NCBI GenBank assembly: GCA_041482275.1
Contig: JBGPDL010000006.1
Location: forward strand, 1 to 62,314
Reading direction: 5' to 3'
Source: Gemmatimonadota bacterium
Lineage (GTDB): Bacteria > Gemmatimonadota > Gemmatimonadetes > Gemmatimonadales > GWC2-71-9
DNA length: 62,314 bases
Under the pieces are notes generated by a model. It saw only the letters and a list, made by a program, of their open reading frames with translations, had not been told where the DNA came from and did no database searches. Of this stretch, positions 1,106-62,314 are shown one piece after another. Both the position numbers and the translations under genes were made by a program. How positions within the stretch are numbered: position 1 is the stretch's first letter; every line of letters begins with the position of its first letter.

Positions 1106-3607
1106 TCAATGGAACTCGAGGGCTCCGATGTCGTAGCCCGCCCCCTGCGGCCGAATGATGCCGAGGAAGTCGTTCAGCACCATCGACAGAATGGCGCCGG
1201 CGTCGATGGCCGGGCTCCCGGCCTGGAGCCGGAAGTCGAGTGCCGACGGGTTCACGAACTTCGGGTCGGTATTCTCGATGTTCGAGCCCGTCCCACCCCC
1301 GCCGACCGTCCCCGTGCTGAGGTTGTGGTCGATGTGGGCGCCACTCGACGTGCCCGAAATGCCGACGTTCTGGCCCGGCAGGTAGAAGATGTTGTTCTGG
1401 ATGTACAGGTTCGTCGTCGTCGCCGCGAGAATGATCTGGCCGTCGCGGTTCGGGTTCGGGAACGCGAACGTGTTGTTCACGATGTACAGCTGGTCCACGG
1501 TCGAGCCGTAGCGCTGGATCCCCCAGCCGCGCGTGATGTTGTAGAACACGTTGTTCCGGATGATGACGTTCGTGCCGCGGCCGTTGTAGACGCCGTGGTC
1601 GTGATTCATCCAGTAGTCGTTGCCCGGCTGGCAACCGTTCTCGCCGGCAGCGAACCGCCCGATGTCGTGCACCCAGTTGCCTTCGATGATCAGGTTGTCG
1701 CTGTACGCGTCGATGGCCGACAACCCGATGCCGCTCGATTCGCAGTACCGGCCCACGTCGTGAATGTTGTTCCCGGCGATCTCGATGTCGTGGGTGCTGG
1801 TGCTCGGGTCCACGCCGTAGTGGTTCGAGCCCTTCACCTCGAACCCCTCGACGCGCACGTAATTGGCACTGATTTCGACGACGGTGCCGGAGTAGTTGTT
1901 CTGCCCGTCGAGCACCGCTCCCCACTTGTTCTGCGACTTGAACACGACCAGGTTGCCCGCGGAGCCACCCCGTCCGATGGACACGACGGCGCTGCTGCTA
2001 CCGGTGTAGACCCCGTTCCGCACGATCACCATGTCGCCCGGGTTCACGACGTCGGCGGCGTGCTGCACGGTCTGGAACGGCCGCGCGCTGTCGCCCGGAT
2101 TGCCGTCGTTGCCGGCCGCGACGTCCACGTAGTAGCACCGGCCTCCACCCGTGGGCGCGCACCCCGCCGGCGGCGGCGGCGTGCCGACCGCGATCATCGC
2201 GGTCCCGGTCTTGCCTTCCGACGTGGCGGTGATCATCGCCGTGCCGGTCGCCACCCCGCTTACGAGCCCGCTCGAGCTCACCGTCGCCGCCGCGTTGCTG
2301 TTGCTCACCCACGTCACCGTGCGCCCGGTCAATGTGTTGCCGTTCGCATCCTTGGTGGTCGCGGTGAGCTGCACGGTTTGCCCTGGCTGCACCGCCGCCG
2401 CCGCCGGGGACACCGTCACCGACGCGACGGGTGCCGCGGTCACCGTAATGGTCGCGGTGCCGCTCTTCCCTTCGCTCGTGGCCGTGACCGTGGCCGTGCC
2501 TGCGCCCCGCGCCGTGATGAGCCCACTGCCGTTCACCTTCGCGATCGTCGTATCACTCGAAGACCACGTGACGACGCGCCCCGTTAGGGGATTGCCGTTG
2601 GCATCCCGGGGCGTCGCCGTGAGCTGCACCGTCTGACCAACCTGAATGCTCGCGGACGCCGGGCTCACCGTCACCGACGCCACCGGGACAAAGGTCACTG
2701 TCACGGTGGCCGTGCCGCTCTGCCCCTCACTCGTGGCCGTGACCGTGGCCGAGCCACCGGCGCGCGCCGTGACCAGCCCACTGCCGTTCACCTTGGCGAT
2801 CGTGGTGTCGCTCGAGGACCATGTGATCACTCGACCCGACAGCGAATTGCCGTTCGCGTCCTTCGGCGTCGCGCTGAGCTGCGCCGTCTGGCCCGTCAGC
2901 AGGCTGGCGGAGGCGGGGCTCACCGTGACCGACGCGACCGGCACGTTCGAGACCGTGATCGTCGCTGTCCCGCTCTGCCCCTCGCTCGTCGCGGTGATCG
3001 TGGCCGAGCCGGTCCCGGTGCCTCTCACGAGCCCGTTGCCGTCGACGGTCACGGCCGCGGTGTTGTTGCTGGCCCACGTGACGGTCCGACCCGTCAGCGC
3101 GTTGCCAGCCGAATCGGTCGTCGTCGCCTGCAGCTGCGCCGTCGCGCCCACCAGGATCGTCGCCGCCGTCGGCGCCACGCTCACCGCGGATACCGGCATC
3201 AGCGTCACCGTGACGGTCGCAGTGTCCGACAGGCCGCCCGGATTGCTGGTCGCGACGACCCGGAATTGGCCGGTGGTCGACCCGGCCTTGTAGTGACCGT
3301 AATGGCGCTTGCCGTTGCTGCTCGTGTCGGTGATGCTGCCGCTCGTCACGCTCCAGCTCACCGTGACGCTCGCGGAGTCGCCTGTGCTCATGAACGCGAC
3401 GGCCGTGAAGTCGGCGGTCGCGTTTTGGCGCAGCGTGAGAGTCTTGGGAGAGACGAGCAGGTTGGCAACCGTTCCGCCTGGGTCGGTGACGCGGAGCGGC
3501 ATCTCGCACGCGACGATCGCCGCCGTGACGAGCACCGCCAGGGAAGCTACGACGACTCGGTCCTTCAACAGGGCCAGTCGGCACGACAGCTTGTGCTTGA
3601 ACGTCAT
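1106..3607 (-). CDS. Predicted lipoprotein with Ig-like (Big_2-type) repeats and a C-terminal right-handed beta-helix (pectin-lyase-like) domain
   Basis: Start moved to ATG 3607 (MTFKHKLSCRLALLKDR; GGAG SD); lipobox-like IVAC; one divergent plus four ~81-aa PVASVTVSP...TATSEG repeats; YYVD..GNDGNPG motif, beta-helix repeats, C-terminal GSPAIDAG...DIGALEF. Confidence 0.88.
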   Translation of the reverse strand: MTFKHKLSCRLALLKDRVVVASLAVLVTAAIVACEMPLRVTDPGGTVANLLVSPKTLTLRQNATADFTAVAFMSTGDSASVTVSWSVTSGSITDTSSNGKRHYGHYKAGSTTGQFRVVATSNPGGLSDTATVTVTLMPVSAVSVAPTAATILVGATAQLQATTTDSAGNALTGRTVTWASNNTAAVTVDGNGLVRGTGTGSATITATSEGQSGTATITVSNVPVASVTVSPASASLLTGQTAQLSATPKDANGNSLSGRVITWSSSDTTIAKVNGSGLVTARAGGSATVTATSEGQSGTATVTVTFVPVASVTVSPASASIQVGQTVQLTATPRDANGNPLTGRVVTWSSSDTTIAKVNGSGLITARGAGTATVTATSEGKSGTATITVTAAPVASVTVSPAAAAVQPGQTVQLTATTKDANGNTLTGRTVTWVSNSNAAATVSSSGLVSGVATGTAMITATSEGKTGTAMIAVGTPPPPAGCAPTGGGRCYYVDVAAGNDGNPGDSARPFQTVQHAADVVNPGDMVIVRNGVYTGSSSAVVSIGRGGSAGNLVVFKSQNKWGAVLDGQNNYSGTVVEISANYVRVEGFEVKGSNHYGVDPSTSTHDIEIAGNNIHDVGRYCESSGIGLSAIDAYSDNLIIEGNWVHDIGRFAAGENGCQPGNDYWMNHDHGVYNGRGTNVIIRNNVFYNITRGWGIQRYGSTVDQLYIVNNTFAFPNPNRDGQIILAATTTNLYIQNNIFYLPGQNVGISGTSSGAHIDHNLSTGTVGGGGTGSNIENTDPKFVNPSALDFRLQAGSPAIDAGAILSMVLNDFLGIIRPQGAGYDIGALEFH

Positions 3608-3636
3608 GGGTCTCGCTCCATGGTATGTGGTGCGCC

Positions 3637-6126
3637 TCAGGGCGTGAAGAATTCGCTCATGTCGGGCGCCGTCGCCGCAGCCCCCGGGAAGACCGTCACA
3701 CCGAGCCCCTTCAGAATGAGCCGCAGCGTGCTCTGGTGCTGGTACACGGTGGTCGACTGGTAGCCCGGCTTCGACTTCGGGCTCACGGCGACCCACGCGA
3801 CGCGTCCGCCGCCATTGGTGTTATCACCGCCCGCCTCGTCGAACACGATGATCAACAGCCCGTCCTGCTGGAACACCGGGCTGGCGAGCAGCGGCGCGAG
3901 GTTGGTCTGCAACCAGCTGTCGGCCACATCGAGGCCGCAGTCGTGCGCGTCGTTGCACAGATTGGGCACGATATTCGAGAACGCCGGCAGCGTACCGTTC
4001 GCCAGGTCGGTCGCGAACTGGGTGAACGGGACGTTGTTGCACCCCTGCCCGGTCGGGTCGTTGGCCACGTCCGAGAGCAAGGGAAAGACGTTGTGCTTGC
4101 GCGCATAGTCTCCCGTGTCCCCGCCGAGGTAGCACGCGTTCGGAATGCTCTCCGCGTACGACTTCCACGTCTTCCCCGCGGCCACCAGGCTGCGCACGAT
4201 GTTCGGCACGTTCTCGATCGTCGACGAGCCATCGTCGTTCGTGAGAATTTGGCCCGTGGCCAGCTCGAAGTAGTTCCCGATCGATGGGTGCGTATTGGCG
4301 TAGTACTGCGTCGCCAGCCCGTACTGCTGGGCCAGGCCGTTCAGATACGGCATCGACGAGTTGCCGATGACGTCCACGTAATCGGTGTTCTCCTCCGTCA
4401 CCACGAAGACGTGTCCGAACTGGGAACCGCCGCCGGTCGACGGGGTGACGGTCACCGACGCGGTGCCGCTCTTGCCCTCGCTCGTCGCCGTGATCGTCAC
4501 CGGGCCGCCCGCGGCAACGCCCCGCACGAGCCCGCTGCCGTTCACCGTGGCGACCGTTCCATCGCTCGACGACCAGGTGATCACCCGGCCGGACAGCGGA
4601 TTGCCGTTCGCATCCTTGGGGGTCGCGGTGAGCTGCAACGTGCTCCCCACCGCCACGCTCCCCGACGCCGGCGCCACCGTGACCGACGCGACCGGCACGG
4701 GCGTGACGGTGATGGACGACGTGCCGCTCTTCCCTTCGCTCGTGGCCGTGATCGTCGCCGAGCCCGCCACTTTCGCGGTCACGAGTCCGCTGCTGTTGAC
4801 GCTGGCGACCGTCGTGCTGTTGCTGGACCACGTCACCGTCCGGCCCGTCAGCACGTTGCCGTTGGCGTCCTTGAGCGTCGCGGTCAGCTGTACCGTCTGC
4901 CCCGCCTGCACGCTCGCTGACGCCGGGCTCACCGTCACCGAGGCGACCGGCACGCCCGTCACCGTGATGCTCGCGCTGCCGCTCTTGCCTTCGCTCGTGG
5001 CCGTGATCGTGGCGGATCCGACGGCCACCGCCGTCACGAGCCCGCTGCCGTCCACCGTCGCCGCGGACGTATTGTTGCTCGACCAGGTCACCACCCGGCC
5101 GGACAGCGGATTGCCGTTCGCGTCCTTCGGGGTGGCGGCGAGCTGCACCGTCTGACCGGTCACCACGCTCGCCGCGGCCGGGGTCACCGTGACCGAGGCC
5201 ACCGGGGCGTTGGCGACCGTGACGCTGGCCGTCCCGCTCTGACCCTCGCTGGTCGCCGTGATGGTGACGGGACCGCCCGCGGCCACGCCGGTCACGAGCC
5301 CGCTCGAGCTCACGCTGGCAAGGGATGTGTTGCTGCTGGACCAGGTCACCGTGCGACCGATCAACGGATTGCCGCTGGCATCCTTGGGCGTCGCGGTGAG
5401 CTGCGCCCGCTGACCCACCAGGAGGCTCGCCGACGTCGGGCTCACCGTGACCGACGACACCGGGACGTTGGAGACCGTGATGCTTGCGGTCCCACTCTGC
5501 CCTTCACTCATCGCCGTGATGGTCGCCGAGCCAGGGCCCGCGGCGGTCACCAACCCGCTGCCGCCGACCGTGGCCGCGGAGGCGTTGTCGCTGGACCACG
5601 TCACCGTCCGGCCGGTCAGCACGTTGCCGTTCGCGTCCCGCAGCGTCGCCGTCAGCTGGACCGTCTGCCCCACCAGGATATTGGGCGACGCCGGGCTTAC
5701 GCTCACCGACGCGACGGGGACGGAGCAGGCCACGCTGATGCTGGCCGAATCGGACAGGCTCCCGGGCTGACTCGTGGCCTTCAGGCTGAATTGTCCGCAG
5801 CTCGCGTTGTGGTAGTGGCCGTAGTGGCGACCGCCCGCGGAATTGGTGTCGACGGCGCCGCCCGTGGCGCTCCAGGTCACGGCGATCTGCGCCGTATCGC
5901 CGGCGGCGGTGAAGCCGACGGCCGTGAAGTCCTGGACCTGGTTGGGTTGTAGCGTGACTGCGCTGGGAGAAACGACGAGTTGGGCGACCGTCGGGTTCGG
6001 CTCGTTGATGTTGATCGGCTTCTCGCAGCTCGCGACGAACGTGAGCGGGAGCGCGAGCAGCGCGCCGCGGAGCAGACGGTCTTTGAGAAGGGCCAGACGG
6101 TGCGCCAGCTTGTGTAGGAACGTCAC
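3637..6126 (-). CDS. Predicted lipoprotein with Ig-like (Big_2-type) repeats and a C-terminal phosphoesterase (acid phosphatase-like) domain
   Basis: Start moved to GTG 6126 (GGAGG SD; MTFLHKLAHRLALLKDR); lipobox-like VASC; one divergent plus five Ig repeats; HVFVVTEEN, THPS, YARKHN and NDAHD motifs. Confidence 0.88.
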   Translation of the reverse strand: MTFLHKLAHRLALLKDRLLRGALLALPLTFVASCEKPININEPNPTVAQLVVSPSAVTLQPNQVQDFTAVGFTAAGDTAQIAVTWSATGGAVDTNSAGGRHYGHYHNASCGQFSLKATSQPGSLSDSASISVACSVPVASVSVSPASPNILVGQTVQLTATLRDANGNVLTGRTVTWSSDNASAATVGGSGLVTAAGPGSATITAMSEGQSGTASITVSNVPVSSVTVSPTSASLLVGQRAQLTATPKDASGNPLIGRTVTWSSSNTSLASVSSSGLVTGVAAGGPVTITATSEGQSGTASVTVANAPVASVTVTPAAASVVTGQTVQLAATPKDANGNPLSGRVVTWSSNNTSAATVDGSGLVTAVAVGSATITATSEGKSGSASITVTGVPVASVTVSPASASVQAGQTVQLTATLKDANGNVLTGRTVTWSSNSTTVASVNSSGLVTAKVAGSATITATSEGKSGTSSITVTPVPVASVTVAPASGSVAVGSTLQLTATPKDANGNPLSGRVITWSSSDGTVATVNGSGLVRGVAAGGPVTITATSEGKSGTASVTVTPSTGGGSQFGHVFVVTEENTDYVDVIGNSSMPYLNGLAQQYGLATQYYANTHPSIGNYFELATGQILTNDDGSSTIENVPNIVRSLVAAGKTWKSYAESIPNACYLGGDTGDYARKHNVFPLLSDVANDPTGQGCNNVPFTQFATDLANGTLPAFSNIVPNLCNDAHDCGLDVADSWLQTNLAPLLASPVFQQDGLLIIVFDEAGGDNTNGGGRVAWVAVSPKSKPGYQSTTVYQHQSTLRLILKGLGVTVFPGAAATAPDMSEFFTP

Positions 6127-6144: not shown

Positions 6145-6194
6145 AGAAACGAACGGGCCGCCAACGTCGACCCTCGTCGATCGCTGGCGGCCCG
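6145..6194 (-). terminator. Intrinsic terminator forming the riboswitch expression platform
   Basis: Transcript CGGGCCGCCAGCG-AUCGACGAGGGUCGA-CGUUGGCGGCCCG then UUCGUUUCU; its 5' arm is the aptamer's 3' strand. Confidence 0.75.
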
Positions 6195-6269
6195 GCTGGC
6201 GTGGCGGCGAACCGCCGTAGCCCCGTAGCTCTGCGTCACCGCCTTTCGGCGGTTTTGCTCTGAGCAGCG
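6182..6269 (-). ncRNA. GEMM-I (c-di-GMP-I class) riboswitch aptamer, A20 variant (candidate c-AMP-GMP sensor)
   Basis: P1 CGCUG/CAGCG; junction CUCAGA; P2 GC-AAA-ACCGCC-GAAA-GGCGGU-GAC-GC; P3 with receptor-like GCUACG...CACGC and UUCG loop; 56 nt upstream of the start codon. Confidence 0.92.

Positions 6270-59459: not shown

Positions 59460-62314
<2,855 letters not shown>

Follow-up and report, generated by a model that had tools for sequence, protein, structure and literature searches.

A stretch of 62,314 nucleotides (nt) from a Gemmatimonadota bacterium (positions 1 to 62,314 of contig JBGPDL010000006.1, assembly GCA_041482275.1; hereafter the window) carries two adjacent genes, A and B, that encode predicted lipoproteins with nearly the same short N-terminal leader. 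This leader, which takes the form M-[TP]-F-x-[HF]-K-L-[SA]-x-R-L-A-[LR]-[LM]-[KR] and extends over 15-17 residues, is read here, with about even confidence, as a lineage-specific N-terminal extension of the type II signal peptides of one Gemmatimonadales family, presumably one that tunes lipoprotein export. The leader is followed by a hydrophobic core that varies and a lipobox cysteine that does not, and is common to a large modular set of envelope lipoproteins in which a stalk of Big_2 or fn3 domains is combined with interchangeable heads (phosphoesterase, beta-helix or other polysaccharide-lyase-like, and others). Most operons that encode it lie behind a class I riboswitch for cyclic diguanosine monophosphate (c-di-GMP-I) with a terminator-type expression platform. 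The features of the locus in the window, from the riboswitch through gene B to gene A, are as follows.

6183..6269, minus strand: c-di-GMP-I (GEMM-I) aptamer, RF01051, 56 nt before the start of gene B
6145..6193, minus strand: intrinsic-terminator-type expression platform, with hairpin 6193..6155 and T-rich tail 6154..6145
3637..6126, minus strand: gene B, 829 amino acids (aa), GTG start; leader, lipobox, first immunoglobulin (Ig)-like domain (D1), five Big_2 repeats and phosphoesterase head
6076..6126, minus strand: conserved amino-terminal (n-)region of gene B, residues 1-17, GTG start
6028..6075, minus strand: hydrophobic (h-)region of gene B and lipobox VASC (Cys33)
5725..5997, minus strand: D1 of gene B, residues ~44-134, divergent Ig-like with RHYGHY loop, aligned to D1 of gene A
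4429..5718, minus strand: stalk of gene B, five Big_2 repeats, period 86 aa (PF02368, 241.5 bits, 5 stretches)
3640..4428, minus strand: head of gene B, phosphoesterase family (phospholipase C / acid phosphatase superfamily), PF04185
1106..3607, minus strand: gene A, 833 aa, ATG start; leader, lipobox, D1, four Big_2 repeats and beta-helix head
3557..3607, minus strand: conserved n-region of gene A, residues 1-17
3506..3556, minus strand: h-region of gene A and lipobox IVAC (Cys34)
3203..3475, minus strand: D1 of gene A, residues 45-135, sub-threshold Big_2 with RHYGHY loop
2180..3199, minus strand: stalk of gene A, four Big_2 repeats (PF02368, 187.5 bits, 4 stretches)
1109..2176, minus strand: head of gene A, predicted right-handed parallel beta-helix of carbohydrate-active type (NF041518, structural model, Foldseek)

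Comparison of the two N-termini gave the consensus M-T-F-x-H-K-L-x-x-R-L-A-L-L-K-D-R, with identity at 14 of 17 residues, five of these 14 (R10, L13, L14, K15 and R17) being specified by different codons, whereas just 3 of 17 residues were common to the h-regions up to the cysteine. Each N-terminus has the sequence features of a type II signal, namely a charged n-region, a hydrophobic core and a lipobox of the form [LVI][ASTVI][GAS]C. A and B share 63% identity over residues 1-480 and are paralogues, so that their resemblance as such reflects descent and not chance; beyond expectation, however, is how much better the n-region has been preserved than the sequence after it. The string DT.S.G.RHYGHY was found in D1 of both proteins. 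D1 of gene A aligned with positions 2-79 of the 79 in the Big_2 profile PF02368 at an E-value of 0.0042 (17.4 bits as opposed to a cut-off of 22.8), and thus appears to be a divergent Big_2 domain that is not a member by score, while D1 of gene B matched no Pfam family below an E-value of 0.28. The stalk repeats that follow passed the Big_2 gathering cut-off in both proteins. A preliminary description of this locus, made from the window alone, had noted the shared 17-aa leader, the dissimilar h-regions, the codon differences behind shared residues, the lipobox cysteines, the RHYGHY-bearing first domain and the unrelated heads, all of which were borne out; its count of four or five repeats also stood, whereas the repeat period was found to be 86 aa (a domain of ~82 aa plus a linker) rather than ~81 aa.

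The constraint on the leader was assessed by comparing 54 N-termini, non-redundant and taken from 40 fetched loci. Sequences for the conservation counts had been chosen by the motif pattern, in which the lipobox has no part. Pairwise amino-acid identity was 0.67 for residues 2-15 (n-region), 0.32 for residues 16-33 (h-region) and 0.45 for D1, whereas synonymous-codon differences among identical residues were of the same order in all three (0.46, 0.54 and 0.49, respectively). Four codons are in use for the invariant R10 and five for the invariant L7. Conservation of the leader peptide in the face of varied synonymous sites indicates that it is the peptide and not the RNA that is conserved, as the preliminary description had proposed for A and B, and these comparisons show purifying selection on the leader as a peptide. 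The lipobox cysteine was invariant in all 53 aligned leaders. The residues that begin with it, C-E-[KRM]-P, are also conserved (E in 94%, P in 89%), would be kept on the mature protein and occur as well on relatives with ordinary signals. Searches with residues 1-40 of A and B returned no Pfam-A family at E≤10, the family PF13018 for ESPR (extended signal peptide region) included, and no family at E≤10 from NCBIfam, a collection that holds signal-motif models. No published description of the leader was found in full-text literature searches. The view that the motif is unnamed and outside any existing family model was thus upheld for these two collections.

Had the leader been restricted to two paralogues, a recent duplication would have accounted for it, but its distribution is far wider. 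Of 27 genomes from the same genus, 21 contained the 135-aa N-terminus, in one to seven copies each and frequently in tandem, A and B being the only copies detected in the genome of the window (pattern and phmmer scans in six frames; genome 94.7% complete). A database search with residues 1-135 yielded 340 proteins at E≤1e-3 which, where named, came from Gemmatimonadales or Gemmatimonadetes metagenome genomes and were annotated as "Ig-like domain-containing" or "YjdB"; the motif was N-terminal in 117 of the 120 matches listed, and the hydrophobic cores that followed it varied freely. In a search of 1.84 billion proteins, a profile of the leader only (A1, 42 positions, built from 53 leaders) matched 413 representative clusters at E≤1e-3, and in each of the 149 matched sequences that were read the motif stood at the N-terminus or just inside an over-long gene call. 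Within the order, A1 matched 64 of 301 genomes, among them 57 of 136 others from the family to which the window belongs (f1), 3 of 137 from one sister family (f2) and 3 of 27 from another (f3). One unpublished genome (G110) is included in these tallies; with it removed they become 63 of 300 for the order and 56 of 135 for the family, and nothing else stated here depends on it. Leader variants such as M-T-Y-T-F-K-L-S-R-R-L-A were found in more distant genera. The lineage of the leader is one family of Gemmatimonadales.

Genes of this protein family very often reach contig ends (e.g., L024, L027, L031, L032, L036, L046-L050, L052 and L053), which fits assembly breaks in Big_2 arrays and makes the copy numbers per genome lower bounds. 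In the protein encoded at L060:4564-7728, a segment of more than 100 residues occurs twice in identical form, owing either to recent tandem duplication or to an artefact of assembly.

Leader, stalk and head behave as modules that can be separated. Thus, the leader was found on proteins in which an fn3 domain comes first (L035 and L060:4564), and also before a canonical Big_2 domain, before a metallophosphoesterase-like domain, before a different head placed directly after the lipobox and on small lipoproteins. When the set was defined instead by D1, 44 of 46 proteins with a strong D1 carried the leader and the other two had ordinary short lipoprotein signals. Among 34 family proteins scanned for heads, 11 carried a phosphoesterase, three a Pel9A or beta-helix domain, four a C-terminal Big_7, one an alginate-lyase-like domain and one a PL14 domain; two others were of the fn3-first type, two were small Big_2 plus fn3 proteins and the remainder had no Pfam head. 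In the tandem arrays a phosphoesterase is usually encoded by the first gene behind the riboswitch, the second gene being variable. These findings agree with the earlier proposal that interchangeable heads accompany the leader; the accompanying idea, that the leader defines a family of stalk-mounted enzymes, holds for the modular set but was too narrow, the leader being separable from the stalk.

The strongest associations of the leader are with c-di-GMP riboswitches and with an operon-initial position. In the window, the aptamer matched RF01051 over its full length (1-87) at 66.4 bits as opposed to a gathering score of 35. The sequence and a terminator scan indicated that the 5' arm of the terminator hairpin shares the last 11 nt of the aptamer, and the RNA fold of this hairpin gave a z-score of -4.76. 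Since the aptamer, the strong hairpin and the T-rich tail lie directly upstream of gene B, genes B and A, which are separated by a spacer of 29 nt and have their own ribosome-binding sites (GGAGG 6 nt before the start of gene B, GGAG 8 nt before that of gene A), form one operon under c-di-GMP-I riboswitch control. The 3' end of the aptamer and the 5' arm of the terminator compete for the same bases, from which we infer an ON switch in which bound c-di-GMP would prevent termination and allow the operon to be expressed.

The same arrangement was common elsewhere. Of the 40 loci fetched around matches to the N-terminus, 38 contained a leader open reading frame (ORF), and an aptamer lay upstream of the first such ORF in 32 of these 38, at a distance of 44-111 nt that was mostly 53-73 nt; the six leader loci without an aptamer were L028, L035, L039, L042, L054 and L059. 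Later leader genes start 5-175 nt after the preceding one. When the 32 aptamer-bearing loci were folded, at least nine of the last 14 aptamer bases paired into a downstream hairpin in 31, and a strict test for a T-tract was also passed in 20 of 32. The association was noted in other genera and in single loci of the sister families f2 and f3 as well, and leaders without a riboswitch were likewise seen in more distant genera. The leader family is thus largely a c-di-GMP-I riboswitch regulon, a connection missed in the first interpretation. In the reverse direction, a cross-tabulation of 32 riboswitch units from six genomes placed a leader ORF after 17. Since the others drive genes of different kinds (prepilin-like, Big_2 lipoprotein with an ordinary signal, STAS protein and more), the notion that the riboswitch requires the leader was rejected.

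Several further observations concern the riboswitches themselves. Two other c-di-GMP-I aptamers are present in the genome of the window, one at G000:C38:22424-22507, before a prepilin-type gene, and one at G000:C3:22931-23011. Tandem double c-di-GMP-I aptamers and one triple aptamer were also noted (L058:1451-1725, L072:41-383 and L105:724-995; G095:C2:1094984-1095416), the triple one preceding a lipoprotein (L092) whose signal is of another kind and may have decayed. At L084, L085 and L087, Big_2 lipoproteins with ordinary short signals lie under a riboswitch with a start codon only 19 nt past the aptamer, a gap that suggests translational rather than terminator control. A borderline match to the c-di-GMP-II-GAG model (40.8 bits as opposed to 40) at L073:2450-2538 (+) is on the strand opposite to that of the adjacent leader gene.

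If the leader is an extension of the signal peptide, as favored here, signal peptidase II would remove the n-region along with the predicted signal peptide, so that the n-region could act only at the cytoplasmic face, before or during translocation, and not in later sorting. Most likely it would tune the export targeting, timing or placement of large multidomain lipoproteins by way of the single general Sec system, in a manner like that in which the extended signal peptide regions of autotransporters are thought to operate; the n-region probably has no part in selecting a dedicated secretion machine. Anchored by lipid and kept at a distance from the membrane by the Ig stalk, the products would be enzymes that act on polysaccharides of the matrix or environment and on phospho-compounds at high c-di-GMP. 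Several points weigh against this interpretation. The invariance of K6, L7 and R10 is in part by construction, owing to selection of the sequences by motif pattern, and the relatives that were compared are not independent samples. Amphipathicity of the n-region was not detectable, its hydrophobic moment being reached by 26-81% of shuffled sequences, and an amphipathic helix was therefore rejected as a supported feature. Other riboswitch-controlled Big_2 lipoproteins of the same genomes use ordinary short signals, which means that the leader is not needed to export such proteins. Finally, some short ORFs without a hydrophobic core begin with the motif and yet look constrained as peptides, a constraint that a function in export only does not explain.

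These short upstream ORFs (uORFs), 41-75 aa in length with the motif at the start, were found at 11 loci, downstream of the riboswitch terminator and ahead of the main leader gene (L029:893-1018, L030:871-996, L034:849-980, L040:3530-3715, L041:798-1019, L052:1554-1757, L053:1433-1654, L056:765-977, L059:1013-1210, L067:2173-2382 and L097:546-773). Two main classes were distinguished by N-terminus, M-P-F-G-F-K-L-S-H-R-L-S-L-T-K in class A and M-[TP]-F-T-F-K-L-A-K-R-L-A-L-S-K in class B, with those of L067 and L097 as further examples. The class B uORFs are each provided with a Shine-Dalgarno sequence (AGGAGG), and in 7 of the 11 loci the uORF stop overlaps the main start codon (ATGA). Over codons 2-18, class A sequences differed by six synonymous and no non-synonymous changes (proportions of synonymous and non-synonymous differences, pS and pN, 0.26 and 0, respectively) and were unalignable thereafter, while class B sequences gave a pN/pS of 0.29 over codons 2-30, in each case from a small sample of related sequences. 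The uORF of L097 retains the lipobox and the beginning of D1, so that the uORFs can be recognised as truncated remains of a former first gene, and at L099 a riboswitch is followed by a 107-aa relic with nothing behind it. That the uORFs are degenerate second aptamers was rejected, a permissive Rfam scan of 10 loci having found no second aptamer inside them. The constraint on the uORFs may in part predate truncation; if it holds, the motif would act without the rest of the signal peptide.

This last consideration leads to the alternative that survives best, although we regard it as unlikely, namely that the first 15-18 residues are an autonomous co-translational element that works without regard to the signal peptide usually found behind it, its nascent chain acting on the ribosome, the mRNA or a cytoplasmic partner, and that might tether riboswitch transcripts to the membrane or serve as a second c-di-GMP-dependent gate. 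Such an element would fit the 11 motif-led uORFs, the Shine-Dalgarno sequences of class B and the frequent ATGA overlaps, the want of amino-acid change in the first 18 codons of class A with the low pN/pS of class B, and the 17 of 32 c-di-GMP-I units that drive a motif ORF. It fits less well with the origin of the uORFs as truncated first genes (L097), in which constraint may partly be inherited, with the presence of a lipobox in every full-length bearer, with second operon genes that carry the motif but not the riboswitch and with the occurrence of the motif without a riboswitch in other genera; moreover, the sample consists of a few related pairs and no partner is known. In a more specific form, which we think rather unlikely, the motif would be a self-standing translated control element of c-di-GMP-riboswitch transcripts, kept, and constrained as a peptide, even where the rest of the first gene has been lost because the nascent peptide itself acts; it might anchor mRNA to the membrane during translation, or a factor responsive to c-di-GMP might recognise it. 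If true, c-di-GMP would control the whole surface-enzyme regulon at a second level as well, during translation.

It is quite improbable that the motif has been inherited passively, through recent duplication or homogenisation by recombination, and has no function of its own. A and B are indeed paralogues, the tandem arrays are rich in repeats, and the many contig-end copies and truncated relics point to frequent recombination, but the n-region is conserved twice as much as the adjoining h-region at equal synonymous divergence, and the motif has been kept in many of the family's genera and in front of mature domains of unrelated kinds. Leader subtypes also differ between paralogues of the same genome, contrary to homogenisation.

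The preliminary description had proposed that the motif marks a dedicated export or assembly route, and selection of a special route, whether twin-arginine translocation (Tat), accessory Sec or some other dedicated machine, would be in keeping with two precedents: large surface proteins that carry YSIRK, KxYKxGKxW or ESPR motifs are handled in a special way, and phospholipases C of the phosphoesterase family are Tat substrates in Pseudomonas. Nevertheless, the proposal found no support and is very unlikely. A Tat signal was rejected because the leader has no twin arginine, only R10 being invariant and R or K being found at position 9 in only 13 of 54 leaders. A single SecA and a single SecY, and no accessory SecA2 or SecY2, were found in each of five genomes examined, SecA of the genome of the window being split by a contig end. 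No transporter or export gene was present among the 14 ORFs scanned around the operon (~23 kb), which are of housekeeping type, and NCBIfam, as noted above, returned nothing for the leader. Least probable, and extremely so, is conservation at the RNA level, with the first codons forming part of the riboswitch platform or of a translation-initiation structure, which would suit the tightly kept distance from aptamer to first motif ORF but is largely refuted by synonymous sites as variable in the leader as elsewhere, and is opposed as well by the terminator and Shine-Dalgarno sequence that already occupy the spacer before the start codon, by gene A and other second genes that have the motif with no riboswitch in front and by riboswitch-driven pilin and ordinary-signal genes that lack the motif.

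With respect to the enzymes themselves, the head of gene B matched Phosphoesterase (PF04185) at 105.9 bits over residues 589-807 (cut-off 23) and gave weak matches to TIGR03396 and TIGR03397, and no relative in the PDB was found by sequence at E≤0.01. The head of gene A scored 19.9 bits against Beta_helix (PF13229), below the cut-off of 25.9, whereas its residues 790-832 matched the choice-of-anchor Q domain NF041518 at 43.2 bits (cut-off 25) and an orthologue that is 91% identical to gene A (L021:3732) matched the Pel9A-like family PF22842 at 31.2 bits (cut-off 25.2). An AlphaFold2 model of this head was a parallel beta-helix (predicted local distance difference test score, pLDDT, 70.5; predicted template modelling score, pTM, 0.75). 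Foldseek matches of the model in the PDB included Pel9A, a rhamnogalacturonan lyase, PL6 lyases and GH136, with E-values of 8e-6 to 1e-4 but template modelling (TM) scores of only 0.3-0.5, and a profile of the head matched 5olq at 2.9e-7. At the level of fold, the head thus resembles pectate, rhamnogalacturonan and alginate lyases and GH136; a beta-helix fold is supported by the model, and the enzyme class is not fixed by these matches.

The neighbors of the operon are an asparagine-synthase-type amidotransferase gene downstream and genes for HflX, a LEA_2 protein, MgsA and others upstream. The interrupted secA lies at 61077-62312 (-) of the window, and its remainder is on G000:C70:2-832.

On the best reading of these results, the leader is a new, lineage-specific extension of lipoprotein signal peptides, its function being unproven. 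Conserved n-region motifs are seldom seen in signal peptides and, where studied, single out large surface proteins for special handling; we know of none that has been described for lipoprotein signals, and the literature searches turned up none. A sharply defined motif that is clearly selected as a peptide and is tied to a single regulatory input, c-di-GMP, provides a testable handle on the way in which a poorly studied soil phylum deploys its envelope enzymes at a lifestyle switch, and a profile of the leader would improve the annotation of several hundred proteins now called "hypothetical" or "Ig-like domain-containing". The persistence of the motif in short relic ORFs hints that its function may extend further than export.

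Of known systems, the ESPR of autotransporters and the n-region motifs of Gram-positive surface proteins come nearest to the leader. The YSIRK-G/S and KxYKxGKxW motifs of Gram-positive bacteria are, like the leader, short n-region motifs that mark a subset of surface proteins, and KxYKxGKxW signals go with an accessory SecA2/SecY2 system. The leader differs in that it matched no NCBIfam or Pfam model, in that no accessory SecA2/SecY2 accompanies it and in that the host is diderm and a lipobox is present. The surface glycan-degrading lipoproteins of Bacteroidota are likewise lipid-anchored, modular and active on polysaccharides in a diderm host, but their export signal comes after the cysteine and stays on the mature protein, whereas the leader motif comes before the cysteine and would be cleaved off.

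The ESPR of autotransporters and two-partner-secretion proteins (PF13018) offers the closest parallel in layout, being like the leader a conserved N-terminal extension before an ordinary signal peptide on large surface proteins. ESPR signal peptides follow an N1-H1-N2-H2-C scheme (PMC2805444), and the leader can be read in the same way, as N1 (MTFKHK), H1 (LSxRLALL), N2 (KDR), H2 (the variable core) and C. In contrast, the two show no sequence relation (no Pfam family at E≤10), the extension is ~25 residues in ESPR and ~17 in the leader, and cleavage is by signal peptidase I in the former as opposed to predicted lipobox cleavage by signal peptidase II in the latter. The bearers also differ, ESPR being found on beta-barrel-linked passengers of Proteobacteria and the leader on lipoproteins of Gemmatimonadales. 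The earlier suggestion of an extended signal or sorting motif like YSIRK or ESPR therefore stands insofar as the leader is a conserved, unnamed peptide extension; it belongs to neither group, and the likeness is at most one of analogy.

As to regulation, no paper on a leader-bearing riboswitch regulon was found in the literature searches. PMC9481103 reports 347 doublets and 12 triplets among c-di-GMP-I arrangements, as well as c-di-GMP-II tandems that lie upstream of a putative surface anchor protein. In known c-di-GMP riboswitch regulons of surface proteins, as here, an aptamer, sometimes in tandem, precedes genes for surface anchoring or adhesion; what sets the present regulon apart is that its members are predicted Ig-stalk lipoprotein enzymes of Gemmatimonadales that share a leader.

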